Below the pieces are notes generated by a model. It did no database searches. It saw nothing but the letters and a program-made list of their open reading frames with translations, and had not been told where the DNA came from. Made by a program: the position numbers and the translations under genes. A DNA stretch of 64,000 nt from contig JACRGC010000016.1 in NCBI GenBank assembly GCA_016212475.1, positions 9,824 through 73,823 of the forward strand, written 5' to 3'. Source of the DNA: Candidatus Micrarchaeota archaeon (lineage in GTDB: Archaea > Micrarchaeota > Micrarchaeia > Norongarragalinales > SBBD01). This document shows positions 7,051 through 61,847 of the stretch, piece after piece. Within the stretch, counting starts at the first letter, position 1. Each line of letters opens with the position of its first letter.

Positions 7051-7073
7051 TTAGATTCCTCAAGGTTCAATAA

Positions 7074-7204
7074 GCCCCCGGCGAGGATTGCACTCGCGAC
7101 CTTCTGCTCGCCTTGCCCCTTTCTTTCCAAAAGAAAGGTGCGATGGCACCGCGCCAAAGAAAAGGACGTACAAGGCAGACGCTCTGCTGCTGAGCTACAG
7201 AGGC
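7074..7204 (-). tRNA. tRNA-Thr(UGU) with a 60-nt intron at the canonical 37/38 position
   Basis: The minus strand reads GCCTCTG TA GCTC AGCAGCA GAGC G TCTGC CTTGTA [60-nt intron] A GCAGA AGGTC GCGAG TGCAATC CTCGC CGGGGGC. All four stems pair; the acceptor stem has two G.U pairs. The exons sum to 71 nt. No CCA is encoded. The intron 3' end (CAAGG) pairs with anticodon-loop CCUUG. Confidence 0.72.
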
Positions 7205-14161: not shown

Positions 14162-14275
14162 ACAATTAATATATAAAATCATACGTAGCAAGTTGAAAGA
14201 GTTATAAAGGATCTTTGATTGAAAAATATACCCAATTTTCACAGTTTTACTGGTAAGTCCAAGGTTAAATTACCT

Positions 14276-17200: not shown

Positions 17201-20200
17201 CTTTCATCAACCGGAATTGGGGTCCATGTTATTTATTCAATTAACAATTCGATAAGCTACGGCAAATTTTCCGGGAACAACTACTTAGGCGCATATTTAA
17301 TCTCGACCAATTCGACAATAATTTCGCATTCTGAATTCATGGGGAATCCGACTGCAGGTTTTTCAGCTGAGGATTCCATAAATACAATCATTAATAATGG
17401 AACATTCATGAACAACAATTTTGTCGGAGTTCAGCTAACTGATTTGGCGAATTTCAATATTTCCATCCTCAACAGCAATTTCACTTTTGATAAAGCATCC
17501 ATAACTTCCCCAAACACCACCCTTGACAATAATTTATTCAGTTTTGGGGATCCTGCAATCAAACTCGATAGCGGGTCCAATGGTTTTTGGATTTCCCGAA
17601 ATACAATCCAGCATTCCGTAATAACATCCACAAATTTTGGGAGCCTCTACATCAAAGCGGGAAATTATGGGCATATTATTGACAATTTGATTTACAATAC
17701 AACCAATACCTCTAACATTGAAGTCGGGGCGGTCTATTCCGAGGGGGATTTTAACAATTACACTGGGAACAACATTACGAATTCCTCGGTTTATGGTTTC
17801 TATTTCAGGGGAGCCACAAATAATTTAATTGCAAGCGGGGTAATTTCACAAACAGCTAAAAACGATTCCCATTTTCCAATCCTATCGAGTAATAATGTAT
17901 TCTTGAACATGAGCTTTAATCGCTCAAAAATAACAGCTGCCGGCGGTAGCAATTTAACCATACGATGGTACCTTACATTAAACATTACAAATTCATCCGG
18001 TGGACCAATTCCTGCAGCTTCTGTAAACATAACCAATAATTCCTTCGGTCCAATGTACGCAATTTCAACTAATGCCGATTCAACCGGATATTTGCGGAAC
18101 CAAATCATTACCGAATACATCGTAAACGGTTCCCATGGCTACGATGCGATGTGCCTCAACCAAAACACCGTAAATTGCTACAACCCGCACACATTCCTAA
18201 TCCAAAACCGCTCATTCAACGACAACCAAACCTCATTCAACATAACCTCTTCTTCAACGCTCCAAATAATACTTTACCCTGATTCAACATTCCCATCAAA
18301 TATTACACTTGTTTCCCCAACTCCATTGAATGGTTCTGGCCAGACAGTAAACTGGTTCATTGTCAATTTCACATTCAATGAAACCTACCCCCAAACCTGC
18401 TGGGTTTCCCTAACCAATACAAGCAACCACAACTTGACAATGGCAATGGATGGCAATAGCTGCTACCTAAATGTCACCGGCCAATCCGATGGCTCTTGGA
18501 ATTACACGGTTTTTGTAAACGATTCCGTTGGAAATACCGCATCAAATGGCACGTTTTTCATTGCATTTGATTCAAATGTGCCAACCAACATCCAAACCGT
18601 TTTCCCAACCCTAAATAATGCAACTTATACCTCCCAAAACTGGGTCATTGTAAACACTACCTTTACCGAACTCAACCCCAACAATTGCATTTTGCAATGG
18701 GGCAATGGCACATTCCAAAACCTTTCCATGGCAAGAAGTGGCAATAGCTGCTATCTCAATGTTACCGGCCAAACACAAGGCGTGCATAATTATACTATAA
18801 TTGTAAATGATACCGCCGGCAACTTCGCCCAGAATGGCACGTTTTACATTACAATTGACTTAACCGCCCCGTCCACAATCGAAATAGTTTCTCCAACCCT
18901 TTCAAACGCATCATACACAATTCATAACTGGGTTTACTTCAATGCCACGTTCACGGAAACAAACCCAAACAACTGCATCCTCCAATACAGCAACGGCTCC
19001 CTTGCCAACTATTCGATGACGAGAAGCAATAATAATTGTTATTTGAATCTGACCGGCCAACCAAACGGTGCGCACAATTACACAATAATCGTCAACGATT
19101 CAGCTGGCAACCTTGCCCAAAACGGAACCTTCTTCATCACACTTGACTCAACTCCTCCCTCTGCAATACAAACCGTTTTCCCGACCCTAAATAATGCAAC
19201 TTATACCTCCCAAAACTGGGTCTTCATCAATTCAACTTTCACAGAACTCAACCCCAACAATTGCATTTTGCAATGGGGCAATGGCACATTCCAAAACCTT
19301 TCCATGCAAAGGAGTGCAAACACCTGCTTCCTAAACATCACAACACAACCCGAAGGCATCCACAACTACACAATAATTGTCAACGATTCAGCCGGCAACT
19401 TCGCCCAGAATGGCACATTTTACATTACAATTGACTTAACCGCCCCGTCCACAATCGAAACAGTTTCTCCAACCCTTTCCAATTCATCAGTTACAATTCA
19501 AAATTGGGTTTTCATAAATGCCTCATTCACGGAAACCAACCCCAATAATTGCATCTTGCAATACAGCAACGGCTCACTTGCAAACTATTCCATGGCAAGG
19601 AGCGGAAATAACTGTTATGCAAACCTTACAAACCAGCCCCAAGGAGCACACAATTACACAATTATTGTAAACGACACCTCAGGCAACCTTGCCCAAAACG
19701 GCACATTCTTCATAACAATTGATCAAACCGCCCCATCCCAAATAACTCTTGTTCCTCCATCCCCATCAAACAATTCCCGGATTTACAACGGCTCAGCAAC
19801 AATCAATGCAACCTTCACGGAAGCAAATCCCAACAACTGCCTTCTCCAATACAGCAACGGCTCACTTGCAAATTATTCCATGGCAAGGAGTGGGAACAGC
19901 TGCTATTTTGATTTGACAAATCAGCCAAATGGCAACTGGAACTACACAATAATTGTAAACGATTCCGTTGGCAATCTTGCCCAGAACGGAACTTTCTTCA
20001 TAAGCTTTTGGATCAACACCTCCCTGAATTATTTGCAATCAAACCAATCCTACGATAACAACGGCAAAGTCAACATAACCGCAATATTTTCAAGGAACGA
20101 TAGGCTGAATTTGACCATAGACACAACTCTTGCCAATTTCATCCTTGGAAATGGCACAAACATAACAATAAATGCAAACAACATATCCCTCAACTTTACC

Positions 20201-23200
20201 GACCAGCCAACCAACACCACATATTTTGCATCGGGCCTTTTTGAACGAACAATTGATGCGGGCTATCCAAATGCGCACTGGAAAATCAATTGGAATGCAA
20301 ACGAATTTTCAAATGCATCCCTGACTGTGCAAGCCGCTGTTTCTGGCGACAATTCGACATTCACAGCTTTTGAAAACCTGACAAACCCGCTTGGCACAAT
20401 CCTTAACCTAACTCCGGCTAGATACCTGAAATATAGGCTGGTTTTCAATTCAAACGGCTCTTCAAGCGCCTTCCTTAATGAAATCAATGCAACTGCCCTG
20501 TTTGGCATAAACGGCTCGGCTTCATTTGTTTTAACCAACCTGCAAACCGGAGCAACTGCAACCAAATCCTGCACTGCAATCAATGGCAATTGTTCCGTCC
20601 CATTCCTATTCCCTTCAGACCTCCCATCCGGCAATTACTCGGTAAATATTTCCGCTTCAAATTCAGCCGAAGGGTATGAATCCGCCTTTTTAATTTACAA
20701 TTCCACTTTTGAAGAATCCCTCTCAAATGCATCCGTATTTTCACCATCAAAAACCGTAACCAATTTCATTGCCGGATCAACATGGTATCTCCACAATGTA
20801 ACCGTTACGGCAAATTCCAACGGCTCGATTTTCAATGTTTCAATCAATTATACATCAAAGCCCGCCTCTTGGGAAATTGCAACGCTTAGCACTTCCTGTT
20901 CCGGCAAGCTTTTTCCCTCCCAAACATGCAATTCAACATTCAATGTCACGGTTGGATCCGATGCCACTCCAAATACCTATGTAATCACATGGAATGCCTC
21001 TTGGCTAACCAACAACAACACGAATTTTGGCAATTCCACTCCTTCAAATGTGGTTATCCAATCCTCCCCTGCAATTTCCGCTAACATTTCCGAAATAAAC
21101 GTTTCTTCAAACCTAAGCCAAAGCAATGTCACAATTGTGCGCATCTCAAACATTGGAAACGTCCAGCTCCAAAACGTTACCGCCTCATTCATCCCAACGA
21201 ATGCAAATTCAAGCTGGTTTTCATTCAATCCCCAAATCAGGACAACCCTTTCAGCTGGAAATAATTATGATTTAACCATAAACATTACAGTCCAATCCCC
21301 CTTCACAGCCGGAACTTACACTGGAAAAATAAACATAACCGCAGACGATGCAACAAATGGGGTAAATTCTACTTCAACATACATCAACGTGACAATTATT
21401 CTTGCTCCCCAAATTCTAGCCGCTCCCTTTGCAGTTACCGCAAACCAATCCCTTTCCTCCCCCCAAACATTCAATGCAACTATTTCAGCCCCCGGCAATT
21501 CGCCCCTGACAAATGTATCCGTTTCCATAATCAACTCAACAATTCCGCTGACCTGGATTGCCATTAATTCATCTTCAAGCAATTGGAACACCTCCACAAA
21601 TACATGGACGGTTATTTCCGAGGGCTCCGGCGCTGTTTTGCAGATAATTGTTTCCATCCTTGATTTCATTTCCGGAATCTTTTCTGCGCTGATCAAAATT
21701 ACCTCTAATGAAGGGGTCGCAACCTACGTAAATGTAACCGTAAATGTTTCTCCCTCCCTTGCTGCTCAAAATGTAATCAACCTGACTACAACCCATGGCC
21801 AAACAAACCAAACCTCCTTCCTGATCAACTCAACTGGCAATTCCAAGCTGGTAAACCTTACAATTTCCTTGATTGAAGGATCCCTACCAACCAGCTGGGT
21901 ATCATTTTCGCCCTCATTTGTTTCAAACATCACCGAAGGGCTCAACTATTCGATTTCAATGAATGTTTCAGTGCCATTTGGCCAGCCTCCTGGCAATTAC
22001 TCCGGCCAAATCAACATTTCCGGATATAATTCAAACAAAACAATTGGCATAACAATCGAAGTTCCAACCAACCGTTCCTGGTATTACCTTCCATATGGCA
22101 ACCAATTCACGCAATTTGGAATCAGTGAAGCCGGCCCCCTTGGAACCGTTACAATCAACAACACCGGAAATGTGAACCTCACATTTGATTTGGCCTATGC
22201 GGACTACGATGGCCGTGCAAGCTGCCTATCCCCCACAAATTTCTGCGGAGCTGGCATAGGTTCGCCTGCAAACCCTTCACTAATCAATGCCACCAAGAAT
22301 TCAACAACCTCGTTTACCATAAGGAAAACAATTTCCGGAAATGGGAACAATACGGATGGATACGCCCTCCAAATTACAATTGCCAACACTTCCGCTATCC
22401 CCTCAACAAATTCAACAATTTTCTTCTTCAACATAACCAATGCGTATCCCAAATTCCTCGAAAATATAATTTACCAAGGAACCATCAACACATCAATCAT
22501 TGAAATAGGCCAGCCTGCAAGATTCAATGTGATTGCAACCGATGATCAGATATTTGGATTAGATCCATCCACTGCAATTTACAACATCTCAAGGCCAAGC
22601 GGCCAAAATGAATCCTTCTTTGCTGTAAACCAAACCCTTGACAAGGATGTAGTGTGCGGCGGCAATTGCCAGGACGCCCAAAATTACACGTTGCAATACA
22701 ACGGAACCAATGTAACTGGCGTTTTCAATATTACTTTCCAAGTAAAGGATTATTTGAGCCAGCAGAACATGACCTCTTTGCAATTCCAAGTGGTTGCAAC
22801 AACCAACCTGACAATCAGCGGAAACAATTCGCAGGTTTTCAATGTTTCCAGCTCGCAAAATTCCCCCCTTCTGCTCAACGTTTCTATCAGGAACACCGGC
22901 CAAGTAAACGCCTACTCTATCAATTTCTCAGGAATGATCACAAGGCTTTCCAATTCGACAAACACGCTTGCAAATTGGAGCTTTAATCCAATTCCAGCAA
23001 TTGCCTTCCTGAATTCTTCAACCCAAAATCTAACTACTTTCAATATCTCAATTGCCCAAAAATCATACGGCACATATTATTTCACTCCCAATGCAACCTA
23101 CCGCCAGCCAAACGGGACAATTGAAGTTATTTGGGGCCCAAACCTAACAATTGAAGTTCCTGAAAACGCCAACTTTTCGCTAACCCCATCAAACCAATCG

Positions 23201-26200
23201 CTTGCAATACACCACAGCCTATTGCAATCCGAATGGTTTACCATAAACTCGAATGGCAATGCAAATCTCACAAATTACAACATCTCCTACTCCACCTTAT
23301 TTTCGAACTTCACTGTAAATTTCAGCCAAACAACAGGCTCTTTGAATGTTGGCGAATCTGCAAACATCACTTTCAACGTATCCGTTTCAACAGGGGCAGT
23401 TTCCGGCAACAGGAATTTTACCATCAATGTCACAACAAGCAGCTATTCCCGCACTTTCAACGTGAACCTAACCGTTCCCTTCAACAACACCTGGTCTATC
23501 AGCTCAAATACATTGGCAATTGAAGGAATAGCCTCAGATAACCAAGTCAATTCCCAAATCATCATCAACAATTCCGGAACCTCCGATGCCAATCTTAATT
23601 TCACTTTCAATCTGACGGGGAATATGACCCAATTCTCCAACCTTCTCAATTCATCAAATTACCTGAATTATTCCCAAGGCTTTGCAATCCCAATCAACTA
23701 TTCCGCCCCCGATGTGAACGCATATTACATAGGCGTTTTGAACATAACCGAATCAAACTCGAGCATTTCCAGATTGGTAAATATCACATTCAGGGCAGTA
23801 ACCGTCCAGCTTGTTGTCCAAAGCTTCTTTGCCCCTGCCCAAACAATTGCCGGGGATGCAATCAACACCTCCCTTCTGTTAATTTTCGGAGGGCAAAATT
23901 CAACTGTCAACTCCACTTGGAGCCTATATTTGGGAACGAATGCATGCGCATTAACCAGCAATTCAACAGTTGGAAATCTTACCTCCCTTGGATGCAATGC
24001 CCCAACAATTAGCGATGGCAGGTTTTACAATTTCACAATTTCCGTTAATTATTCAACCGGCAACACTTACCTGACAAAAAACACAACCAACAATTCGGCA
24101 ATTTTCTACCGCGATGTTTCAGCCCCAACGGTTTTGAATGAAATCACAAACGATACTTCGCAATATTCGAATATCACAATTATCCTTAACGCCTCCGACA
24201 ACGTCCAAGTGGCGAATACCACATTGCTCTTAACCTATCCCAACGGAACCTCTTCCAATTTCTCCCTTCCCTTCGATTCCACCTTGCAATATTTCAAAGC
24301 CCCCTTCAATTTCACAGGCCTTGGCCTTTACAACATCACTTTTGTTGTGAATGATACTTCGGGAAACAACAATGCATCGGTGAATGGATCGTTTGAAATT
24401 TACTCGACAAGATTTTTCAATGGGTCAATACTCAATCTGGAGGGCAATCCAATCAACACGACCTTCATAGTTGCAAATTCCACTGAAGGCAACCTTGAAG
24501 CATTCGCAACCAACGCCTCTGGCTATTACAACGTGACCCTTAGATCCAAATGGTATTTCCTATCCGCAAAGTTCCTCAATTTCAATTTCACGATTTCAAA
24601 AGTCGATTTCACAACCATCAACCAAAGCTTCATTTCAATTGACAATTTTTCCGGTTCCGACATAATTTCCCAAGTCAGCGGAGCCAAATCCGGCTTTGCC
24701 GTTATAATCGATGCGCCCAACAATGCAACAATTTCAGTTGACTATTCCTCCCTTCTTTCATCAATCACCGACGAATCCGCTCTTAGGATTTACCGATGCT
24801 CAAACTACACTTATGCGTCAAGGTCATGCGTTACTAGCTGGTCTGCGCTATCCGAATTTACAACCAATACGGTTCTGAACATAATCACTTCCAATGCAAC
24901 TTCCTTTGCAAACTCAACTAATGCGTACGCGCTTGTTCAAGTGCCAGCTTCAAGCACTCCCGCCCCAACACCAGCCCCTTCGGGCGGTGGCTCAAGCGGA
25001 GGTGGCGGAGGTGGTTTAGCTCCTGCAGCTACGCCAACCCCAACAGCCACTCCAAAAGCCGACAATGTTTCCGCGCAAATAGACGAGCTCAAAAAACTCC
25101 TTGAAAAGAACGAATCAAAACAAATCGGAGTCGAGCCCGGAGTCCAGAGCATAACAATTGAACTTTTGCCAGGAGAGGATTCGCAAACCCCCTTCCATCT
25201 GAAAAACAATTTGAATATCTCGTCAAACATTTCCATAACAATTGCCGGCACTGCAAAACAATTTGTGACTCCTAGCGTTTCTTCCATCAAATTAATTCGG
25301 CTTCATGAAACCGACATTTTGCTTTTTGCAAGCATTCCCGAAGGCACTCGCCCAAGCACCTACTATGGCGAGCTTCAACTTTCAAATGAAGTTGGGAAAG
25401 TTTCCATCCCCCTTGTTGTTCGCGTACTTGAAAAGCGGGAAAATCGGGCAATTGATCTTCGGCTCCAGCCCCTCGTTGAAAGCCTAGATCCCGGCGAAAC
25501 GCTTCGGGTCGAAGTCAATTTGTACAATTTGGCGGATCCAAAGGATTACAAGGGTGCATTCACGCTTGAACTGGTCGATCCCGTAACCGATACAATTATT
25601 GTCCAAAATCCTCCCGAAGAAATAACTTTCCAAACCACACTAAATAGCATAAAACCGCTCAAAATACCTCGTGATACCCGCACAGGCAGATTCGTAGTAC
25701 GGGGAATTTACGAGTACAATTTGGGATCTGGCAAGCGCGAAATTTCAGCTGTTGCCTACGTTCGCATCCAAACCTCCATTTGGAGCAGCAAGCTTTTTGG
25801 CACATTATCGCTTTGGCAATTATTCCCAATTCTGATAGTTCTAGCCGCCAGTGCAATCACCTACTACCGCCAATACTCCTACCAAAAGAGCAAGCGCAGG
25901 TACGTATCAAAAACCGATTTCACAAAATTGCCAGAACCCGGCTCAAGATCCGGATACCTTGGCCTAATTGCAGAAACAAAAGTGCGCGCATTCGTCCCAA
26001 TTGACAAGCTCCAAACCCACACCCTGATTGCAGGCGCAACGGGCTCTGGAAAAACCGTTGCAGCGCAGGTAATTGTTGAAGAAGCGCTCCAAAAGAACAC
26101 CTCTGTTTTGGTGTTCGACCCAACTGCCCAATGGACCGGATTTTTGCGATCTCAAAAGAATAGGGACATGCTAGCAACCTACAAGCGTTTTGGCATGAAT

Positions 26201-27064
26201 GCCGATGAAGCAAAAGCTTTCAAGGGAAATATTTTTGTTGTTCGGGATCCAAACATGCCCCTTGACATCAAAAAATACATGAAACCTGGCGAAATCACGA
26301 TTTTTGTCATGAACAAGCTTTCCCTTTCAGATCACGAAACATTCATTTCAAATACAGTAAAGCAAGTATTTGCAACCGGACTCCCAGAATCCCCCGAGCT
26401 AAAAATGCTCCTGGTTTATGATGAAGTCCACCGCCTGCTTCCAAAATTCGGTGGCAAAGGAGAAGGTTTTGTGCAAATAGAGCGGGGCGCGCGTGAATTC
26501 AGGAAATGGGGGGTTGGAATGGTCCTAATTTCGCAGGTGCTTTCGGATTTCATAGGCGAAATCAAGGCAAACATTGGAACCGAGCTCCAGCTTAGGACAA
26601 AATACGAAGGCGATTTGGAGCGCTTGAAATTGAAATACGGAGAGGATGCTGCGCGCTCAATAGTTAAGGAAAGCATCGGCTCTGGAATGGTCCAAAACTC
26701 CGAATACAACAACGGCCAGCCATACTTTGTATCCTTTAGGCCCTTGCTCCACAATGTTGTTAGGCTTTCGGATGCCGAGCTATCCTCATATGAAACCTAC
26801 AATGAAAAGCTCGAAAAGCTCGACTTTGAAATGGAGCAGCTTCGGCAATCCGGGTCCGATGTTTTGGATTTGGAGCTCGAAATCAACCTTGCCAGGGATA
26901 AGATTAAGAAGGGCTCGTTCAATATAGTTGAAATATACCTCGAATCCTTGCAAAGCAAAATAGAGGGCATGAAAAAAGCCGTCCAAAAGAAGGCAATGGA
27001 AACGGATTTGGAGGAAATTGGGATGGGCAGTGGGAAATTGAAGGATGGGAAGGAAGATAAATGA
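14276..27064 (+). CDS. Giant surface protein (~4260 aa) with a C-terminal TM helix and a cytoplasmic HerA/DUF87-like ATPase domain
   Basis: One uninterrupted ORF. The ATG at 14276 gives a signal-like start, MRGRVLLLAPFVLAVLLLLSISS. The ectodomain has beta-helix-like and Ig/CARDB-like repeats. TM helix at 25811-25867. Walker A GATGSGKT and Walker B LLVYDEVH, then REFRKWGVGMVLISQ. Confidence 0.9.
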   Translation: MRGRVLLLAPFVLAVLLLLSISSTISGDDLNQTLDSNSTNSSIGNATIVPTFSPTPSVSSTLEPTPSPSPAPIPAITPLPTPSPTIDISPSPTFSPTPTQISAPTPTIDASPSPTFSPTPIVSIIPSIAPTPAISPSPAATISPTPTKGQNNLANSEFGSGIFLPMSGDPGPSPPSPNSACDVVTADTTLIQNIAASYTCYNITGNSLTFDCAGYNITGNGSGYAFNISYKNNIVIKNCIISNFSRAISAENAINLAFINITIYNVTDYGIFVNASANTNISSVSISESRPAAIAIAGANLTGIYLLNVSNGNFSDITIQKLFAGNTSVTSQPGGSVVGISYQVSQNSNFTNIYIRNLIPGRGITTQTAAAFGHSGNATGIFGSNFNSTIFQNISIHNLLGSQGSRGRNSGTGGDGSESSNVIGFYATNGVNSTISNLTISNLSSGVGGNGGTGSSAAGGAGGNAGFVFGIYFQNSFNNSIKSTTILNLTGEFGGNAGAGATIGGNGGIGGQVFSIGIRQLSYNISINGIDIRFVQGGTGGSFGSGTPDGSGGFGGNSSFLYISNSNATTFENAYANSSIGGDMGTSAGAVLVHGGIGSGIYFHLANYTNINNASLYNISSGTTDVFGMLRTSGLFFAASSFNKITNSTIKIIDHHLDAFDPLTDYSIYSEGGSINNNLLNSSFNRSNIGFFDAAGINNLTISWFATVNVTNGSGQVGSANVRIYNQTSSAIPMLFATTDSNGHVNAEIAEMTIFGYISSASSCKAHVNNTCFTNHTISVNNSVYAFGTSIAVLNYSKTIPIFLCSSLQSSTTLQNNVSFNDVCFTLNASNIVLDCANNAIIGNRSGFSIGVYANSKSNVTIKNCYISNFSSGIMANYTSRSVFLNNTIIDTAIVKNQGATAFGIYFNNSDYNNLTSNFVTNLNATAISSLGYPNCNTSTVNSFRFENSSHNFATNINGSLSKARGYSSSEGSCALSSTGIGVHVIYSINNSISYGKFSGNNYLGAYLISTNSTIISHSEFMGNPTAGFSAEDSINTIINNGTFMNNNFVGVQLTDLANFNISILNSNFTFDKASITSPNTTLDNNLFSFGDPAIKLDSGSNGFWISRNTIQHSVITSTNFGSLYIKAGNYGHIIDNLIYNTTNTSNIEVGAVYSEGDFNNYTGNNITNSSVYGFYFRGATNNLIASGVISQTAKNDSHFPILSSNNVFLNMSFNRSKITAAGGSNLTIRWYLTLNITNSSGGPIPAASVNITNNSFGPMYAISTNADSTGYLRNQIITEYIVNGSHGYDAMCLNQNTVNCYNPHTFLIQNRSFNDNQTSFNITSSSTLQIILYPDSTFPSNITLVSPTPLNGSGQTVNWFIVNFTFNETYPQTCWVSLTNTSNHNLTMAMDGNSCYLNVTGQSDGSWNYTVFVNDSVGNTASNGTFFIAFDSNVPTNIQTVFPTLNNATYTSQNWVIVNTTFTELNPNNCILQWGNGTFQNLSMARSGNSCYLNVTGQTQGVHNYTIIVNDTAGNFAQNGTFYITIDLTAPSTIEIVSPTLSNASYTIHNWVYFNATFTETNPNNCILQYSNGSLANYSMTRSNNNCYLNLTGQPNGAHNYTIIVNDSAGNLAQNGTFFITLDSTPPSAIQTVFPTLNNATYTSQNWVFINSTFTELNPNNCILQWGNGTFQNLSMQRSANTCFLNITTQPEGIHNYTIIVNDSAGNFAQNGTFYITIDLTAPSTIETVSPTLSNSSVTIQNWVFINASFTETNPNNCILQYSNGSLANYSMARSGNNCYANLTNQPQGAHNYTIIVNDTSGNLAQNGTFFITIDQTAPSQITLVPPSPSNNSRIYNGSATINATFTEANPNNCLLQYSNGSLANYSMARSGNSCYFDLTNQPNGNWNYTIIVNDSVGNLAQNGTFFISFWINTSLNYLQSNQSYDNNGKVNITAIFSRNDRLNLTIDTTLANFILGNGTNITINANNISLNFTDQPTNTTYFASGLFERTIDAGYPNAHWKINWNANEFSNASLTVQAAVSGDNSTFTAFENLTNPLGTILNLTPARYLKYRLVFNSNGSSSAFLNEINATALFGINGSASFVLTNLQTGATATKSCTAINGNCSVPFLFPSDLPSGNYSVNISASNSAEGYESAFLIYNSTFEESLSNASVFSPSKTVTNFIAGSTWYLHNVTVTANSNGSIFNVSINYTSKPASWEIATLSTSCSGKLFPSQTCNSTFNVTVGSDATPNTYVITWNASWLTNNNTNFGNSTPSNVVIQSSPAISANISEINVSSNLSQSNVTIVRISNIGNVQLQNVTASFIPTNANSSWFSFNPQIRTTLSAGNNYDLTINITVQSPFTAGTYTGKINITADDATNGVNSTSTYINVTIILAPQILAAPFAVTANQSLSSPQTFNATISAPGNSPLTNVSVSIINSTIPLTWIAINSSSSNWNTSTNTWTVISEGSGAVLQIIVSILDFISGIFSALIKITSNEGVATYVNVTVNVSPSLAAQNVINLTTTHGQTNQTSFLINSTGNSKLVNLTISLIEGSLPTSWVSFSPSFVSNITEGLNYSISMNVSVPFGQPPGNYSGQINISGYNSNKTIGITIEVPTNRSWYYLPYGNQFTQFGISEAGPLGTVTINNTGNVNLTFDLAYADYDGRASCLSPTNFCGAGIGSPANPSLINATKNSTTSFTIRKTISGNGNNTDGYALQITIANTSAIPSTNSTIFFFNITNAYPKFLENIIYQGTINTSIIEIGQPARFNVIATDDQIFGLDPSTAIYNISRPSGQNESFFAVNQTLDKDVVCGGNCQDAQNYTLQYNGTNVTGVFNITFQVKDYLSQQNMTSLQFQVVATTNLTISGNNSQVFNVSSSQNSPLLLNVSIRNTGQVNAYSINFSGMITRLSNSTNTLANWSFNPIPAIAFLNSSTQNLTTFNISIAQKSYGTYYFTPNATYRQPNGTIEVIWGPNLTIEVPENANFSLTPSNQSLAIHHSLLQSEWFTINSNGNANLTNYNISYSTLFSNFTVNFSQTTGSLNVGESANITFNVSVSTGAVSGNRNFTINVTTSSYSRTFNVNLTVPFNNTWSISSNTLAIEGIASDNQVNSQIIINNSGTSDANLNFTFNLTGNMTQFSNLLNSSNYLNYSQGFAIPINYSAPDVNAYYIGVLNITESNSSISRLVNITFRAVTVQLVVQSFFAPAQTIAGDAINTSLLLIFGGQNSTVNSTWSLYLGTNACALTSNSTVGNLTSLGCNAPTISDGRFYNFTISVNYSTGNTYLTKNTTNNSAIFYRDVSAPTVLNEITNDTSQYSNITIILNASDNVQVANTTLLLTYPNGTSSNFSLPFDSTLQYFKAPFNFTGLGLYNITFVVNDTSGNNNASVNGSFEIYSTRFFNGSILNLEGNPINTTFIVANSTEGNLEAFATNASGYYNVTLRSKWYFLSAKFLNFNFTISKVDFTTINQSFISIDNFSGSDIISQVSGAKSGFAVIIDAPNNATISVDYSSLLSSITDESALRIYRCSNYTYASRSCVTSWSALSEFTTNTVLNIITSNATSFANSTNAYALVQVPASSTPAPTPAPSGGGSSGGGGGGLAPAATPTPTATPKADNVSAQIDELKKLLEKNESKQIGVEPGVQSITIELLPGEDSQTPFHLKNNLNISSNISITIAGTAKQFVTPSVSSIKLIRLHETDILLFASIPEGTRPSTYYGELQLSNEVGKVSIPLVVRVLEKRENRAIDLRLQPLVESLDPGETLRVEVNLYNLADPKDYKGAFTLELVDPVTDTIIVQNPPEEITFQTTLNSIKPLKIPRDTRTGRFVVRGIYEYNLGSGKREISAVAYVRIQTSIWSSKLFGTLSLWQLFPILIVLAASAITYYRQYSYQKSKRRYVSKTDFTKLPEPGSRSGYLGLIAETKVRAFVPIDKLQTHTLIAGATGSGKTVAAQVIVEEALQKNTSVLVFDPTAQWTGFLRSQKNRDMLATYKRFGMNADEAKAFKGNIFVVRDPNMPLDIKKYMKPGEITIFVMNKLSLSDHETFISNTVKQVFATGLPESPELKMLLVYDEVHRLLPKFGGKGEGFVQIERGAREFRKWGVGMVLISQVLSDFIGEIKANIGTELQLRTKYEGDLERLKLKYGEDAARSIVKESIGSGMVQNSEYNNGQPYFVSFRPLLHNVVRLSDAELSSYETYNEKLEKLDFEMEQLRQSGSDVLDLELEINLARDKIKKGSFNIVEIYLESLQSKIEGMKKAVQKKAMETDLEEIGMGSGKLKDGKEDK
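14423..14716 (+). repeat. Pro/Thr/Ser-rich low-complexity linker with an internal ~72-nt direct repeat
   Basis: PTPSPTIDISPSPTFSPTP is followed by APTPTIDASPSPTFSPTP. Confidence 0.8.
15476..16085 (+). repeat. Gly-rich periodic segment (~45-aa period) inside the beta-helix-like region
   Basis: Recurrent NxS-I-xNL-xG-xGGNGGxG...GGxGG...G(I/F)YF blocks, read from the translation. Confidence 0.5.
18293..20020 (+). repeat. Six tandem 288-nt (96-aa) domain repeats with a 576-nt higher-order duplication
   Basis: Unit starts are 18293, 18581, 18869, 19157, 19445 and 19733, all in frame. Long identical runs sit 576 nt apart, for example at 18593/19169 and 18860/19436. Confidence 0.9.
25955..26760 (+). 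other. HerA/DUF87-like P-loop ATPase domain of the giant protein (cytoplasmic side)
   Basis: THTLIAGATGSGKTVAAQVIVEEAL...VLVFDPTAQW (Walker A at 26033-26056). MLLVYDEVHRLLP (Walker B at 26408-26431). GAREFRKWGVGMVLISQVLSDF. Confidence 0.75.
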
Positions 27065-31901: not shown

Positions 31902-32021
31902 TCAAGGCTGCTTCCACTCAATCTCATATATGCAAATTCAAATAGAGGGGGATCAGGAAGACCTTCAAACTGAGGGGGATACTTCCCCCGCGGTTCAGGG
32001 TTGTTTCCACTCAATCTCATA
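31902..32021 (-). repeat. Direct duplication of the endA 3' end (27 nt, 93-nt offset) bracketing a 66-nt insert
   Basis: 31995-32021 and 31902-31928 match at 24 of 27 nt. Both encode YEIEWKQP-stop, and all 3 differences are synonymous. The insert carries GAGGGGGAT twice (31945, 31972) and the hairpin GGGGGA-TACT-TCCCCC (31974-31989). Confidence 0.8.
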
Positions 32022-33161
32022 GTATTCGTATTTGCTTTTCGGCAGCTCAATCCGTTTTACTCTGTAGTAGGTGATGCTGGTTTCCCTATCGCAAATTGCC
32101 AAAATTAAGTCCAATCCAAAGCTCTTTGCCTTCTGGATGGATTCTGCTAGTTCTTCGCCACCGATTTCCTCCTCTTCACTAAGAGCTAGCATCAAAAATT
32201 TGGGTTTATCCTCCTTTGGATTTTCAATTAGCCCTCCTTTCTTCCGGTGATACAAAACAAAATCCAATTCGCCCGCCTGCTGCTTTTTTTCCCCAGGAAT
32301 TGCCAAAATAAATGTCTTCTTGACTCCGTGCGCAACCCTAATTGCCCTGCTCCACTCCGAAATCAGCATTTTTGCATCCCTTGGAAAAACATGGATCACA
32401 TGCTTTGAGTGCATCCACTCCTCAATTGCAAGGGTTGGAGCGGCCCCCGGGAAATACAACCTGAAATGCGTTCCAAACTTAAATCCGCTTTTAACAACAA
32501 ACCCCCGAAGCCTCCAATCCTCATAAACCTCATAAAGCGCAAGGAAATCATTCCTTCGTTTCGAGCATTCCTTGATCAGCTTCTTATCCGAAATATTCGC
32601 CTTCATATTTCCATGCTTAATCAGGAATAGCGTCTCATACGCATCCAATTTCAAAAGCCTTCCATGCTTTTTTGCCTTATACGTTCCATGCTGGCCAAAC
32701 CAGGTTGCCTCATAAATCACTTTCCCTTCCTCATCATCATCAATTATGGACATCAAATCATCGCTGAAAAAAAGCGCCCTTGCCTTCACATCAATTGGCG
32801 CAAATTCCTTGTATGGGTATTTTATTACCGGCGATCTTCCATAGTTCTCTTTAGCTTCCTCAATTCCCCTTGCAATAATTCCCCTATCCCTCCAATCCCT
32901 ATAGCAAAAATAGCGCGCTAAAAATTTCTTATTATCAATGAATTGTCTGGCCACCATATTGAATGAAATTTCCTTCCCATTCTTTGTTACAGTAGCATTC
33001 CTAACATCCATCAAATAAAGCGCCTCTTCTGGCATTAGAATCAGCTGTGTTTTCTTGCCTTGGTATTCCTTCCCAAAAAAGCCCCGATCAAGCGCCTGCA
33101 CGGAAATTAGATCCCGAACAATTATGGATCCATCATTTTCCAATTCTAGTGTAACTGCCAT
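31995..33161 (-). CDS. endA: tRNA-splicing endonuclease, multi-unit single polypeptide
   Basis: The catalytic unit is YEDWRLRGFVVKSGFKFGTHFRLYFPG...HSKHVIHV...AHGVKKTF, carrying the Y/H/K triad. A degenerate N-terminal unit (YRDWRDRGIIARG) and an extra C-terminal unit flank it. The ATG at 33161 is preceded by GGAGGAG. Confidence 0.85.
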   Translation of the reverse strand: MAVTLELENDGSIIVRDLISVQALDRGFFGKEYQGKKTQLILMPEEALYLMDVRNATVTKNGKEISFNMVARQFIDNKKFLARYFCYRDWRDRGIIARGIEEAKENYGRSPVIKYPYKEFAPIDVKARALFFSDDLMSIIDDDEEGKVIYEATWFGQHGTYKAKKHGRLLKLDAYETLFLIKHGNMKANISDKKLIKECSKRRNDFLALYEVYEDWRLRGFVVKSGFKFGTHFRLYFPGAAPTLAIEEWMHSKHVIHVFPRDAKMLISEWSRAIRVAHGVKKTFILAIPGEKKQQAGELDFVLYHRKKGGLIENPKEDKPKFLMLALSEEEEIGGEELAESIQKAKSFGLDLILAICDRETSITYYRVKRIELPKSKYEYYEIEWKQP

Positions 33162-33308
33162 ATTGCAAATCTCCTCCAAGCTGCTTCCAAAGGGAGGCAA
33201 GTGCTTGTTTAAAGTTATAACTAGAATATGAATTAAATGCTAATAAACGCTTCGGGCAATCAAAACAGACTAGCGGTTTGGGTTCTAAATGCCTTCCTAA
33301 AAAAAGCT

Positions 33309-56330: not shown

Positions 56331-56419
56331 CCAATCATACTGCGCGCAAATTCGAATTCTTGGAATTTCATCACAACCTATTTAAACAGGAATCCGCATT
56401 AACTACTTCCGAATGCTTT

Positions 56420-57604
56420 ATGCAAACTAATCCTTTAGCGGATGGCACGAATCAAACGGGCTCTTATTCTAAAATTTTCCAGTCGGATTTCAAAAATCCA
56501 AAAACCCCGAATGCAATCCTTGTGCTAAAGGATGGATCCCATTTCCTTGGCGGGCAAATTGGGGCTGTTAAGGAAATCCTTGGCGAGCTCGTATTCAACA
56601 CCTCTATGGTCGGATACCAAGAAGCCCTAACGGATCCTTCCTATGCCGGGCAGATTTTGACCTTTTGCTATCCATTGATTGGCAATTATGCAACAAATCT
56701 TGATGACGCCGAATCCGAAAAAGTGCATGTTAGGGCGGCGGTAGTCCGAGAAAACTGTGAATCAGGAAAATTCTACCACTTCAAAGCAAAGCTTGGGCTA
56801 AGCGAATACCTAAAGGAAAACGATGTTCCGGGGATTTCAGGAGTCGATACCCGCTCAATTGTCAGGAAGGTGCGCGAATCGGGGGTCATGCCATCGATCC
56901 TTTCCCCGCTCGAACCCAATTTGTCCGAAAAGCAATTGCAGGAAAAAATCTCCGAGCTAAAAAGCAAAATATCCGGGTTCGATTACGGCTCCGTAAATTT
57001 TGTTTCGGAAGTCAGCATCAAGCAAAAGAAAATCTTCTCCCCAAAAAAAATCGACAAAAAAGTCGCGCTGATCGATTGCGGAGTAAAGCTAAATATAATC
57101 CGTGAACTAAATCTTAGGAACATCGAAGCAACTGCTTTTCCCTATGACATATCCGCCAACACAATCCTTAAGGGGGATTTTGACGGCGTTTTGATTTCAA
57201 ACGGGCCGGGGGATCCGGCGCTTATGAAGGAAACCATATCGACAACAAAAAAACTGATCCAAAGCCTTCCAACCCTTGGTATTTGCCTTGGCCATCAATT
57301 GATTGCACACGCACTTGGCGGAACAACCTACAAATTGAAATTCGGCCATCGTGGAAGCAACCATGCAGTTCTCAACCCGGAAACTGGGAAAATCTACATT
57401 ACAACACAAAACCATGGATACGCTGCAAAGGACATTCCGCAAAATTTGGCGCAAACCCTCTTCATCAACTGCAACGACAAGACAAACGAGGGCATACGCC
57501 ACAAAACATTGCCGGTGATTTCAGCCCAATTCCATCCCGAAGGGTCAAATGGGCCAAAGGATGCGAATTTCCTATTCGATGAGTTTTTGAAAATGATGAA
57601 ATAA
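56420..57604 (+). CDS. carA: Carbamoyl-phosphate synthase small (glutaminase) subunit
   Basis: GICLGHQL catalytic Cys, NHGYA and QFHPE. The N-terminal domain has LVLKDGSHFLG. Confidence 0.92.
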   Translation: MQTNPLADGTNQTGSYSKIFQSDFKNPKTPNAILVLKDGSHFLGGQIGAVKEILGELVFNTSMVGYQEALTDPSYAGQILTFCYPLIGNYATNLDDAESEKVHVRAAVVRENCESGKFYHFKAKLGLSEYLKENDVPGISGVDTRSIVRKVRESGVMPSILSPLEPNLSEKQLQEKISELKSKISGFDYGSVNFVSEVSIKQKKIFSPKKIDKKVALIDCGVKLNIIRELNLRNIEATAFPYDISANTILKGDFDGVLISNGPGDPALMKETISTTKKLIQSLPTLGICLGHQLIAHALGGTTYKLKFGHRGSNHAVLNPETGKIYITTQNHGYAAKDIPQNLAQTLFINCNDKTNEGIRHKTLPVISAQFHPEGSNGPKDANFLFDEFLKMMK

Positions 57605-57617
57605 GACTAGTGATTTT

Positions 57618-58664
57618 ATGAATATGGCGAATTTAGGAATTAAAAATGAAATCGGAGCACCCGAACACAGCCTCCGAAATCCTTATACCTTGTTTTCAAA
57701 CAAATTAATGCGTTTTCAAGAAATGGGGCAGGAAACCATGGAGTTGCATCTTTCAGACCTACCAGGGGAATTTATAGTAAAGCTTAGTGATCAAGGCAGA
57801 AGCTTGCTGTTTTTCGACCTTGATTCTAATCTAGCACCATCAAAATTAGGAATTTCAAGGTCATTTTTTTATCATCTAAAAAACAATCGGCATGGATTTC
57901 GGCTTTCTACACTTAAAAGATTTGCAGAATATAAAAAAATACCATTAAACGAATTCGAGCCCTTTGTTTCCTGTCTTATTTCTAATCGTGGTGGAAGGGT
58001 GTGTTTTATTTTTCCAATAAAAGAATCAGCATCCTTAGCAAGGCTTGTTGGGCACTGCTTTGGCGATGGTAATATAAGTTCAAAAAAGGGCGAATTTGAT
58101 TATGTCAATTGTGATTTGGGGCTAATTGATGAGGTAACCCGAGAAGTTAATTTTCTTTTCAATTCCAAGCCCACGTACAGTGGCCATAATCCGGATGGGT
58201 CCTATAAGATTACTTTTTCTAATTTGGTTGGAAAAATACTTGAGCTTGCAGGCGCTCCAAGGGGGGGCAAAGTTCATTATAAGGGTTCTTTGCCAAATTG
58301 GATAATGCATGGTTCGCTTGAAATAAAAAAAGCATTTCTTCAATCACTATTCGATGATGATGGCTCTGCACTATATTCCGAAAATTACAGGGCAAAAAAT
58401 GTAAACCTCCATTTTACCCGGGTGTTGGTTAATGACTCGTTTTTTGTTAATTATCTTCAAGACATTCGTGTTTTGCTTAATGCTTTTGGGATACGCTCAA
58501 CAAACCCCTATATTGCGCGGCGATATTTTGTTCAAAATTCCGAAAGGATAGTAAGGGGAATTTTGATTTCAAGAAAGTCCGGAATAACTGCCTTTCACGA
58601 CTCAATAAATTTTACCCAATTAATAAAAAAGAATAGGTTGGAACGGATCATTAAAAAGGGGTGA
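57618..58664 (+). mobile_element. Free-standing double-motif LAGLIDADG homing-endonuclease-like gene between carA and carB
   Basis: Two LAGLIDADG motifs ~100 aa apart: LARLVGHCFGDGNIS and KKAFLQSLFDDDGSA. N-terminal HTH-like region. It has its own ATG and stop, so it is not in frame with carA or carB and is not an intein. Visibly more A/T-rich than the car genes. Confidence 0.8.
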
Positions 58665-58668
58665 TAAT

Positions 58669-61600
58669 TTGCTAAAGGACAAAATCAAAAAAGTATTGGT
58701 AATAGGCAGCGGCCCCATAGTAATCGGTCAGGCAGCCGAACCCAAATAAGCTTGCTTATTTGGCGGAAATTCGACTACTCAGGGACGCAATGCTGCAAAG
58801 CGCTGAAGGAAGAAGGCATAGATATCATATTGGTAAACAGCAACCCCGCAACCATCCAAACGGATTTCGAATTTGCGGATAGGATTTACATAGAGCCCCT
58901 AACCGTTGAAACCATAACAAGAATAATTGAAATTGAAAAACCTCAGGCAGTAATTGCAACAATGGCCGGCCAAACCGGCCTTAATTTGGCAACAAAGCTA
59001 AAATCCACGTTTCAATTGCATGGCGTTGCCGTTCTTGGCACATCAATTGAAACTATCGAACTGGCTGAAGATCGCGAAAAGTTTGCCCAGCTTATGGAAA
59101 AAATAAATGAGCCTATTCCCAAAAGCATGCGTGCAACAAACCTTGAGGACGCAAAAAAAGCGCTTTCTTTGCTTGGGCTTCCATTGATCGTACGGGCGGA
59201 TTTTGCCCTTGGCGGCGCAGGCTCATCAATTGTAAGATTGGAGGAAAATTTCATTTCGGCTGTTGAAACCGCATTAAATTCTTCCGGGACAAGTTCATGC
59301 CTGATTGAAAAATCCGTTGAAGGCCTATCCGAACTCGAATACGAGGTCATTCGCGATTCAAATGACAATTGCATAACAATTTGCAACATGGAAAATATCG
59401 ACCCCATGGGCGTGCATACCGGCGAGAGCATTGTAGTTGCGCCCTCCCAAACCCTAACCGACAAGGAATACCACATGCTCCGTGCCGCCGCAATCCGCGT
59501 TATCCGCGCGCTTGATGTGAGGGGCGCTTGCAACATCCAATTCGCGCTTGATCAGCAAAACGGAAAATACTACATCATAGAAGTAAACCCAAGGACCTCC
59601 AGATCATCCGCGCTTGCCTCGAAGGCAACCGGCTACCCAATTGCTTGGGTTTCGACTAAAATCGCCCTTGGCTACCAATTGCATGAAATCCCAAACAAGA
59701 TCACGGGAAAATCAGCAGCATTTGAGCCTGCGCTTGATTATTGCGTTGTTAAGATGCCAAAATGGCCATTCGACAAGCTCTATTCGCAAAAAATACTTGG
59801 GACGCAGATGAAATCCACCGGCGAAGTGATGGCAATTGGCAGGACTTTCGAAGAGGCGCTCCAAAAAGCGATTCATTCCCTTGAGCTAAAGCAAAAAATA
59901 GAATTTGATTTCACATCCCAAACCGCAATCGAAAAATCCCTATTGCCAAATGAGCTGAGGCTGTTTGCAATAAAGGACATATTGCGCCAAAAAATGCTAA
60001 CCGTCGATGAAATTTCCCGCATCTCGAAAATCCACAAATGGTTCATAGCAAAAATCGATGGAATCGTTGCAATGGAATCGCAAATAGAAAAAATAGATGT
60101 AACCAATTCCAAAACAGCCCCAATTCTTCTTGAGGCAAAAAGAATGGGCTTTTCCGACAACCAAATTTCCTTCAAATCCGCCCTATCCAACGATGCAATT
60201 TCACATTTCAAGGCAAGGAATTCGATTGCCCCGACCTACAAAATGGTTGACACGTGCTCTGGCGAATTCGAAGCGCTTACCCCTTATTATTATTCCACAT
60301 TCGAGCAGGAGGACGAATCGCATCTTCTAAGGGGCTCTTCAAAAAAGAAAGTGGTCATACTTGGATCCGGGCCCATTCGGATCGGGCAGGGAATCGAATT
60401 TGACTATTGCACAGTCCACGCGGTCCTTGCGCTAAAAGAACTGGGGTACGAATCAATAATCATAAACAGCAACCCCGAAACCGTATCAACTGATTTTGAT
60501 GTCTCTTCAAAGCTTTATTTCGAGCCTTTAACTGCAGAAAATGTTTTGGATGTGATAAAAAAGGAAGGGGAAATAGAAGGGGTTGTGGTGCAATTCGGCG
60601 GGCAAACCTCCGTCAACCTTTCAATCCCTCTTGAAAACAACGGCGTAAAAATACTTGGCACCTCGGTTGCCTCAATTGACGCTTCCCAAAACCGCAAAAA
60701 ATTCAAAGCGCTGATGGGCAGGCTAAAAATTCCCCTGGTGGAAAGCGGGGTTGCATTCTCAAAAGAAGAAGCGCTTGAAATTGCAAGGTCGATTTCCTAT
60801 CCCCTCCTGATCCGGCCCTCGTACGTGCTTGGCGGAAGGGCAATGGAAATTGTCTACACGGAAAAGCAGCTCCTCAAAAAAATAGACGAGGCGATATTCA
60901 TTTCCGGCTCTTATGCGATCATCATGGATAGGTTCCTTGAGGATGCAGTTGAAGTGGATGTTGATGCCCTAAGCGATGGCGAAAAGGTAAAACTTGCCGG
61001 AATCATGGAGCAAATCGAGGAAGCCGGGATACATTCCGGCGATTCAAGCTGCGTGACTCCTGCAATTGGGTTTTCCGATATTGCAATTAAAAAAATCCGC
61101 GACTACACAAAAAGGATCCTCCTTGAGCTTCAAATAATTGGCCTAGCAAACATCCAAATGGCAATCAAGGGCGATGATGTGTATGTTTTGGAGGTAAATC
61201 CAAGGGCCAGCAGGACCGTTCCATACCTAAGCAAGGCAATGGGCGTTCCGATTGCAAAAATCGCCTCAGCTTTGCAGGTTGGGAAAAAATTAACCGATTA
61301 TTTCGATTCATTTGAAAAAGAACTGATACCAAAGCACGGCTATTTTGCAGTCAAATCGCCGGTTTTCCCATTCATCAAGTTCAGGGATGTTGATCCGATC
61401 CTATCCCCAGAAATGAAAAGCACCGGCGAAGTGATGGGGATTGCAAAAACCTTCGAGGAAGCCTACCTTAAGGCGCAACTAGCTGCCGGCAACAAATTCG
61501 GGAGCACGGTATTCCTTGGCTCTTGCGGCAAATGGAAAAAAATTCTTGCCGACAAGTTCAAGAAAGCAGGCATTCAAATATTTGATTCGGATAAGATTTC

Positions 61601-61847
61601 CGAAAAAGACGCCCTTTTGATGGTTAAGCAAAACAAAATCTCCTTCCTGATCGATGGGATCAAGGGATCCGCCAAATCGGAAGAGGAAATCCGGCCAACC
61701 GAAGCTATCCGCAAATCCGCAGTCCAGTTCAGGCTTCCGGTAATCAGCAGCTATTTTGCAGCCCTTAAAATTGCGGATTCGCTTGAAAAAACCAAAGGCA
61801 GGAACGGCAAATTGTTTGCGCCAGTTGCCTTAAACGAGCTTGCATGA
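58669..61847 (+). CDS. carB: Carbamoyl-phosphate synthase large subunit, reading frame interrupted by a 29-nt insert
   Basis: 58669-58740 encodes [23 protein letters not shown]. From 58770 onward, in a different frame, it encodes FDYSGTQCCKALKEEGIDIILVNSNPATIQTD... and the rest of a full two-lobe CarB. Joined, the two parts match the conserved CarB N-terminus. Confidence 0.88.
58741..58769 (+). other. 29-nt hairpin insert splitting carB (mini-intron, bypass element or inactivating insertion)
   Basis: The insert is CCCAAATAAGCTTGCTTATTTGGCGGAAA. It has a perfect 9-bp stem, CCAAATAAG/CTTATTTGG, with a CUUG loop. It carries an in-frame TAA at 58747-58749. Confidence 0.8.

Follow-up and report, generated by a model that had tools for sequence, protein, structure and literature searches.

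The carB gene, which specifies an essential enzyme of a Candidatus Micrarchaeota archaeon and is carried on the 64,000-nucleotide stretch of DNA analyzed here (contig JACRGC010000016.1 of assembly GCA_016212475.1; referred to as the window), is interrupted by 29 nucleotides (nt) that separate the codons for the two halves of the conserved CarB motif GQAxE/FDYSG. We propose, with a probability of roughly 0.75, that these 29 nt are an archaeal mini-intron of the bulge-helix-bulge (BHB) type, present in the carB mRNA and spliced by the splicing endonuclease. The spliced-intron reading is preferred because removal from the RNA alone gives a CarB with the motif GQAxEFDYSG in every lineage found to carry such an insert. 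A free-standing gene for a LAGLIDADG homing endonuclease lies directly upstream of carB, and the odds appear slightly better than even that the intron belongs to a mobile cassette made up of this nuclease gene, the carB 5' exon, and the mini-intron.

The layout of carB, in window coordinates, is as follows.

58669 to 58740, plus strand: carB exon 1, a TTG start and 23 codons ending in GQAAE, assigned by translation.
58741 to 58769, plus strand: predicted 29-nt mini-intron of relaxed BHB type, with an in-frame TAA at 58747 to 58749.
58742 to 58763, plus strand: intron hairpin h', a 9-bp stem (58742 to 58750 with 58755 to 58763) closed by a CUUG loop.
58770 to 61847, plus strand: carB exon 2, from FDYSG to the stop codon at 61845 to 61847, with 75 to 100% identity to CarB proteins of Micrarchaeota.

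The TTG at 58669 is preceded by the ribosome-binding sequence GGGGTGAT. Read into the insert (58741 to 58769, CCCAAATAAGCTTGCTTATTTGGCGGAAA), the exon-1 frame encodes Pro-Lys and then meets the TAA stop; exon 2 continues from 58770 in a different frame for 1025 codons, encoding FDYSGTQCCKALKEEG... Removal of the 29 nt results in a CarB of 1049 amino acids (aa), the best matches of which are Micrarchaeota (DPANN) proteins with up to 75% identity, or 92% for one partial protein. The position of the insert is ambiguous to the extent that its junction can slide up to 2 nt leftward within an AA repeat. An earlier note on this DNA had described a 29-nt insert splitting these codons, and its layout, in-frame TAA, 9-bp CUUG hairpin, and restored CarB were all confirmed. 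In two public assemblies the carB gene of the window is annotated only in N-terminally truncated form, as a 1031-aa protein starting from TTG 58752 inside the intron (P0001) and a 1005-aa protein starting from a downstream TTG (P0286); annotation pipelines overlook carB exon 1.

A comparison with carB in related genomes, which the earlier note had recommended, revealed inserts of 21 to 34 nt at the identical GAA/TTC site in 10 further archaeal carB lineages, mostly Micrarchaeota. Two CarB homologs starting with MLVWRKFDYSG, which is a translated insert tail, led to their contigs, and further loci came from CarB calls with truncated N termini, from one match to a pattern in metagenomes, and from the neighbors of nuclease genes. 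The metagenome scan with the pattern GCCGAR-N16-30-GGCGGAAATTYGAYTA returned one true new locus (L125) and four chance matches, and this pattern was too strict for the variant tails CGGTAA, CGGCAA, and CAGTAC, which were found by the other routes. A scan of contig collections with TGGCGGAAATTYGAYTA was too unspecific, with chance bacterial matches among the matches listed. The count is of 11 distinct lineages including the window; a twelfth, L129, is interrupted by a contig end and was left out. Insert lengths are as follows.

Window, 29 nt; L001, 30 nt; L002, 31 nt; L125 (the same as L130), 33 nt; L128, 30 nt; L131, 30 nt.
L132 (the same as L133 and L134), 34 nt; L135, 22 nt; L136, 31 nt; L137, 32 nt; L138, 21 nt.

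The host CarB proteins of these lineages are 55 to 75% identical to that of the window, the exon-2 open reading frames (ORFs) of about 1,000 codons stay open wherever contigs permit, and the protein sequence of exon 1, its start codon, and its ribosome-binding sequence are kept in every insert lineage. Insert lengths are multiples of 3 in 5 of 11 lineages and not in the other 6, so that all three frame classes are represented. A stop in the exon-1 frame nonetheless occurs 2 to 4 codons into the insert in all 11 lineages, which exceeds the chance expectation for AT-rich sequence (roughly 0.34 per independent insert). These early stops suggest selection for quick termination on unspliced mRNA.

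A perfect palindrome within a conserved codon pair resembles an artefact of assembly or sequencing, or else the recent insertion of a miniature palindromic transposable element, and the insertion site CGAA/TTCG is itself palindromic. Such origins are exceedingly improbable given that the same insert letters recur across independent assemblies (the 34-nt insert in L132, L133, and L134 and the 33-nt insert in L125 and L130) and that ten other divergent inserts occupy the same site. Moreover, an element similar to miniature inverted-repeat transposable elements or repetitive extragenic palindromic sequences would be expected to be dispersed, whereas the search for other palindrome copies that the earlier note had suggested found no second copy in the 64-kb window with up to 3 mismatches allowed. 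Of the options listed in that note, assembly error is excluded by the occurrence of the same kind of insert in many independent assemblies, and a recent inactivating palindromic insertion is contradicted by the conserved site, the structure, and the intact 1,000-codon ORF at 55 to 75% protein identity.

The inserts differ in sequence and share a common plan, consisting of one variable base, a hairpin of 4 to 11 bp without sequence conservation, and the tail CGG-N-AA. The tail reads CGG followed by A, U, or C in 10 lineages and CAG-U-AC in L138. The elements of the proposed structure in the window are as follows.

58735 to 58738, plus strand: helix H, 5' strand GCCG in exon 1, pairing with 58764 to 58767 in the minimum free energy (MFE) fold.
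58764 to 58767, plus strand: helix H, 3' strand CGGA, the conserved intron tail, pairing with 58735 to 58738.
58739 to 58741, plus strand: 5' three-base bulge AA/C, unpaired in the MFE fold, with a predicted cut between 58740 and 58741.
58768 to 58770, plus strand: 3' three-base bulge or loop AA/U, assigned by geometry, with a predicted cut between 58769 and 58770.

The MFE fold of 58715 to 58800 holds the 9-bp hairpin, the 3-nt AAC bulge, and a CCG/CGG helix that joins exon 1 to the intron tail; the fold energy of this segment alone is unremarkable (z = -1.07). Three Watson-Crick pairs of helix H (CCG/CGG) are retained in 11 of 11 lineages. In L138, exon 1 carries GCUG and the tail CAGU, a compensatory change from C-G to U-A that spans exon and intron. 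At the fourth position of the helix (G35-N67), 5 lineages, among them the window, have G.A, 3 have G-U, and 2 distinct rows have G-C. All four basal pairs of the hairpin carry double changes, and RNAalifold, run unguided on the full sequences, recovered the hairpin with 9 covarying pairs. Between helix H and the hairpin lies the 3-nt bulge of the 5' site (A39 A40 N41), an arrangement that is the same in all 11 lineages, and the 3' site (A68 A69 U70) follows helix H four pairs away on the opposite strand. According to the archaeal BHB rule, cleavage occurs between bulge residues 2 and 3 (PMC2738675). Applied to the window, the rule yields cuts between 58740 and 58741 and between 58769 and 58770, which is exactly the 29-nt removal that restores GQAAE-FDYSG, and its cuts match the frame-restoring junctions for 11 of 11 inserts.

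In the transcript, exon bases GCCG (58735 to 58738) would thus pair with the intron tail CGGA (58764 to 58767), with the hairpin stacked on the resulting helix H, and this pairing would leave two 3-base bulges, AA/C and AA/U, four pairs apart. An EndA of the ARMAN-2 type would cut each bulge between its second and third bases, and an RNA ligase, presumably RtcB, would join the exons into ...GQAAE-FDYSG.... On RNA left unspliced, translation would end after two extra codons. An RNA-level mini-intron cut by the splicing endonuclease had been among the options of the earlier note, and it is the one that conservation, covariation, and predicted cuts following the BHB rule favor.

The window encodes an enzyme suited to this role.

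31995 to 33200, minus strand: EndA, a three-unit epsilon2 (ARMAN-2-type) RNA-splicing endonuclease of 401 aa.

Two stretches of this protein match the Pfam domain tRNA_int_endo and two match the corresponding N-terminal domain, and the protein aligns end to end with the ARMAN-2 enzyme (PDB 4fz2/9w2k, E = 4e-127). The Tyr-Lys of the ARMAN-specific loop is kept as Y174/K175, corresponding to Y160/K161 of ARMAN-2. A 2025 structural study found this loop to be essential and the ARMAN-2 enzyme to cut both BHB and bulge-helix-loop RNAs (PMC12397907). Judged by its sequence, the host therefore encodes a splicing endonuclease of the type able to cut relaxed motifs. The earlier note was right that a multi-unit EndA is present, though its coordinates (31995 to 33161) need correction to those of the minus-strand ORF given above.

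Several observations weigh against the spliced-intron reading. The structure-trimmed alignment used for pair counting, in which 94% of cells pair compared with 84% in shuffles (0 of 500 shuffles equal it), double changes occur at 5 pairs, and slid controls drop to 14 to 49%, was arranged with the structure in mind. The RNAalifold consensus favors a competing exon-1 hairpin (UCGGN/NCCGA) over helix H, and single-sequence MFE folds pick helix H in 5 of 11 lineages and the competitor in 6. Helix H itself consists of three invariant Watson-Crick pairs, joined in the window by a G.A, and shows one compensatory event. The 3' bulge lacks a proper outer helix to close it, and the motif falls outside the strict hBHBh' definition. 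A gene for the RtcB ligase was not among the window ORFs scanned, which were part of the window's ORFs. Finally, LAGLIDADG folds also occur in maturases (bI3 is among the fold matches of the neighboring nuclease) and in WhiA regulators, both of which rank lower than the nucleases.

Beside the 3' bulge just one adjacent pair (N34-U71) can form, and a more distal UCGG/UCGA pairing, which is dictated by coding constraints, leaves a 7-nt loop opposite. We term the motif relaxed because a proper outer helix at the 3' site is missing. The carB motif is a relaxed BHB of the HBh' or bulge-helix-loop class. Processing of this class is established for (alpha-beta)2 and epsilon2 endonucleases, and many substrates in Crenarchaeota and ARMAN are relaxed as well. 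The remark in the earlier note that a hand fold gave no canonical BHB thus holds for the weak outer helix, whereas helix H, the bulges, and the cut sites do fit the BHB rule. Overall, comparison of the loci firmly supports the intron hairpin; helix H is supported by conservation, one covariation, and geometry, and is not proven. The competing exon-1 hairpin (58724 to 58739 in the window) is possible at all loci, including L127, a close relative of the window without the intron, and it may follow from the codons for Ile-Gly...Ala-Glu or may act as a folding switch. When the window was scanned for further ORFs interrupted by a bulge-helix-hairpin of the carB geometry, carB was recovered among about 1,000 matches, and the scan was nondiscriminating; the top matches fell within continuous ORFs such as one of 4281 aa.

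The insert could also be removed from the RNA by a different agent, either another pair of RNase and ligase or the LAGLIDADG protein acting as a maturase. The shortness of helix H, the 3' site without a closing helix, and the existence of LAGLIDADG maturases speak for such an agent, which we consider unlikely because L002 and L125/L130 keep the intron without a LAGLIDADG gene, the cut positions agree exactly with the BHB rule, and a broad-specificity EndA is encoded in the genome.

Comparison among lineages also bears on whether the ribosome, rather than a nuclease, could deal with the insert. Like T4 gene 60, the window combines a hairpin with a stop right after a potential take-off codon. 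Translational bypassing of this kind, or programmed frameshifting, would lead from the AAA before UAA to the AAA before UUC and insert Pro-Lys, giving a product that holds the peptide GQAAEPKFDYSG. The window and L002 do have an AAA before the stop that equals the last insert codon, with the hairpin after the take-off site, but in the other 9 of 11 lineages the take-off and landing codons do not match; on this ground the T4 gene 60-type bypass, which the earlier note had raised as an AAA-to-AAA event, was rejected. In L131 and L136 the ribosome would have to land on UAA, and with all three frame classes represented and stops in all inserts, no single recoding event suffices. Bypassing would furthermore put 2 to 5 residues into the near-invariant GQAxEFDYSG motif and offers no explanation for the conservation of the CGG tail or for the way this tail covaries with exon 1. 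We regard recoding as very improbable.

There is likewise a slim chance that carB is a pseudogene or is expressed as two products, an exon-1 peptide of 24 to 26 aa and a large fragment made by re-initiation within the insert or downstream of it. Gene callers report N-terminally truncated CarB proteins (P0001, P0286, P0005, and P0020), and TTG 58752 provides the window with a start in the exon-2 frame. However, 6 of 11 lineages have no start codon in the stretch from the last stop of that frame to FDYSG, and the first one lies 12 to 62 codons downstream. The conservation of exon 1 with its ribosome-binding sequence, start codon, and protein in all lineages, together with exon-2 ORFs of about 1,000 codons that are intact where contigs permit, also argues against this explanation, under which the hairpin covariation would have no role.

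The proposed intron stands at the end of a row of three genes, and the homing endonuclease gene adjoining carB had been overlooked in the earlier note.

56360 to 57604, plus strand: carA, encoding the small subunit of carbamoyl-phosphate synthase and first gene of the carA/nuclease/carB row, with Pfam matches to CPSase_sm_chain (2e-46) and GATase (3e-48).
57618 to 58664, plus strand: free-standing gene for a predicted helix-turn-helix and double-motif LAGLIDADG homing endonuclease, between carA and carB.

The likely start of the nuclease gene is ATG 57738, which gives a protein of 308 aa, and its stop TGA (58662 to 58664) falls within the carB ribosome-binding sequence. The Pfam match to LAGLIDADG_3 is weak in the window protein (8e-4) and stronger in its 60%-identical homolog from L001 (5.8e-8). 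No PDB entry matched the nuclease by sequence. The AlphaFold2 model (pLDDT 95), searched against the PDB with Foldseek, has as its top matches the intein-associated TliVMA, PI-PfuI, and PI-SceI and the archaeal intron enzymes I-Tsp061I and I-DmoI. The motifs FGDG (D110) and FDDDG (206-209) are invariant across 16 homologs. With two LAGLIDADG motifs, the double-domain alpha-beta-beta-alpha-beta-beta-alpha fold of a two-motif monomer in the model, and these acidic residues, the protein is a predicted nuclease. No further family members were found in the window. The close family is small (18 clusters). With a threshold of E<=1e-30, the wider helix-turn-helix and LAGLIDADG family has 126 representatives, a number that rises to 1215 with E<=1e-10. 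A C-terminal winged-helix tail (..NRSxxW..) is frequent in this wider family, most members of which are without carB-like ends and may target other genes.

The nuclease gene lies directly 5' of carB exon 1 in the window, L001, L128, L131, L132 (with L133 and L134), L135, L136, L137, and L138. Among the family members whose contigs were examined, the insert is present in 9 of 9 nuclease-bearing lineages, and a nuclease gene beside an intron-less carB was never seen among the lineages examined. The intron occurs without the nuclease gene in two lineages, L002 and L125 (the same as L130). Neither is present in L127, the nearest carB relative of the window (about 91% aa identity), in which carA abuts carB and the intron-less site reads GCCGAATTCGAT (sequence at and around the site: GGCCAGGCCGCCGAATTCGATTATTCC, GCCGCCGAATTCGATTAT). 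Three allele classes were thus seen, with nuclease and intron, with the intron only, and with neither. A nuclease that cleaves intron-less alleles where the intron inserts, together with an intron that makes its allele immune, would be expected to produce just these classes. The palindrome CGAA/TTCG is centered on the insertion point. In the cassette that we envision, the nuclease would cut intron-less carB alleles at or near this palindrome, repair would copy the intron, and often also the nuclease gene, into the cut allele, and the intron would shield its carrier by splitting the nuclease target.

Several features of the loci are consistent with such movement. Each intron-bearing carB has a closer intron-less than intron-bearing relative (76 to 94% identity over 250 aa in most). 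Over its last 51 nt, window exon 1 shares 94% identity with nuclease-bearing L001 and 78% with L127, whereas for exon 2 the order is reversed, with 67% identity to L001 and 82% to L127; as a sign of co-conversion this switch, observed over a short 51 nt, is suggestive only. In L131, the first 15 codons of the resident carB (2501 to 2545) remain upstream of the nuclease gene and the functional exon 1 lies downstream, so that the remnant looks like an insertion scar of the cassette. Similar N-terminal remnants are carried by P0123 and P0146. Within L131 1974 to 2666, an additional 176-aa ORF without a Pfam match lies between carA and the nuclease gene; the remnant comes after this ORF and is joined in frame to the nuclease gene call. 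When the spacers that separate carA from the nuclease gene were aligned, no element stood out as clearly conserved.

The distant nucleases P0137 and P0174 (about 34% identity) abut a different type of carB (..GSG(S/A)LKIGEAGE). The association of nuclease and carB would be old, because these distant nuclease ORFs too run in frame into carB exon 1. Nuclease ORFs without a stop of their own, in L136 (726 to 1775), P0127, P0132, P0137, and P0174, read through exon 1 and end at the mini-intron stop just past the Glu codon, and they appear in public databases as misannotated fusion proteins. For the carB of L135 (JGI 3300043569), the nearest intron-less relatives (79% and 74%) include proteins labeled Nitrososphaerales, and the cassette may not be confined to Micrarchaeota. 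An ancestral large intron that once enclosed the nuclease gene is a speculative origin for the arrangement.

Introns within archaeal protein-coding sequences are extremely rare. The cbf5 pre-mRNA intron of Crenarchaeota was reportedly the subject of work by Watanabe in 2002. Like the carB insert, it is a short intron in a coding sequence with a relaxed BHB and predicted cuts, between bulge residues 2 and 3, at the exon borders, its hosts have broad-specificity endonucleases, and its distribution among relatives is patchy (Yokobori 2009, PMC2738675). The carB intron differs in the gene concerned, in its occurrence in Micrarchaeota (DPANN) and possibly others, in the epsilon2 rather than (alpha-beta)2 endonuclease, and in its link to a homing endonuclease gene; furthermore, cbf5 splicing was shown by cDNA, whereas carB splicing is predicted from sequence. 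The BHB intron in the 5' untranslated region (UTR) of Haloferax volcanii HVO_1309 is likewise an mRNA substrate beyond tRNA and rRNA and is experimentally verified, but it lies in an untranslated region and restores no frame (PMC7714728). By 2020, mRNA BHB introns had been reported for cbf5 and one Haloferax 5' UTR and for no others (PMC7714728). In the literature that we searched, the crenarchaeal cbf5 intron was the sole coding-sequence intron in archaea, and no report of a carB intron was found in the open-access literature covered, which was incomplete.

The relation of nuclease and intron resembles collaborative homing, as described for F-CphI with the psbA group I intron of cyanophage S-PM2 and for T4 mobE with I-TevIII (PMC6083498, PMC2790892). 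In these systems, as in carB, the endonuclease gene lies beside rather than within the intron of a conserved gene. Their introns interrupt the nuclease target and are co-converted with it, and the carB allele classes fit this pattern. The F-CphI and mobE systems belong to phages and involve a self-splicing group I ribozyme, whereas carB of cellular archaea would carry a host-spliced BHB-type intron of 21 to 34 nt, with a cassette that appears to bring its own copy of the 5' exon and a nuclease whose cleavage we infer. Archaeal rRNA introns with I-DmoI and I-Tsp061I also combine a BHB-type intron with a LAGLIDADG enzyme of the same fold, but there the nuclease ORF lies inside a long intron of an rRNA gene, and in carB it lies outside a tiny mRNA intron. 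In the unconventional splicing of XBP1 and HAC1, the mRNA intron is very short (26 nt in XBP1), changes the reading frame, and is defined by the structure of the RNA; IRE1 cuts it out and ligation is of the RtcB type, as part of a eukaryotic regulatory system. The carB intron is similarly short, frame changing, and defined by structure, with no evidence of regulation.

We give even odds to the view that carB harbors an undescribed type of archaeal mobile element, which would combine a free-standing LAGLIDADG nuclease, a replacement 5' exon, and a host-spliced intron of 21 to 34 nt. The intron would then exist since it splits the nuclease recognition site in a part of carB that cannot mutate. 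If the spliced-intron reading is true, the known range of mRNA splicing would widen to include a new phylum, through a gene of core metabolism in DPANN archaea, as well as the epsilon2 endonuclease, and the inserts would be natural minimal substrates for relaxed BHB recognition. The intron would also explain systematic misannotation, both of truncated carB calls and of nuclease ORFs fused to exon 1. The link to a free-standing homing endonuclease would provide a testable model for the origin and movement of such introns and, if true, would show a route by which BHB introns reach protein-coding genes and pass from lineage to lineage, and possibly from phylum to phylum.

Two further features of the window were noted. 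A tRNA gene at 7073 to 7204 on the minus strand (Rfam, 46.9 bits) contains a 60-nt anticodon-loop intron. ARAGORN missed the gene by default and with introns enabled called it Ala(UGC) with the intron at position 34, whereas the acceptor stem and loop favor Thr(UGU) with a canonical 37/38 intron, leaving identity and intron position ambiguous; its bulge-adjacent helix may end in G.A, like that of carB. The 4281-aa ORF mentioned above (14219 to 27064, plus strand) is a single ORF with Ig-like repeats (Big_13, NPCBM_assoc, and FlgD_ig) and a C-terminal region resembling HerA/DUF87 ATPases, and its domains suggest a giant protein of the surface or secretion type, which is unusual in a small DPANN genome.

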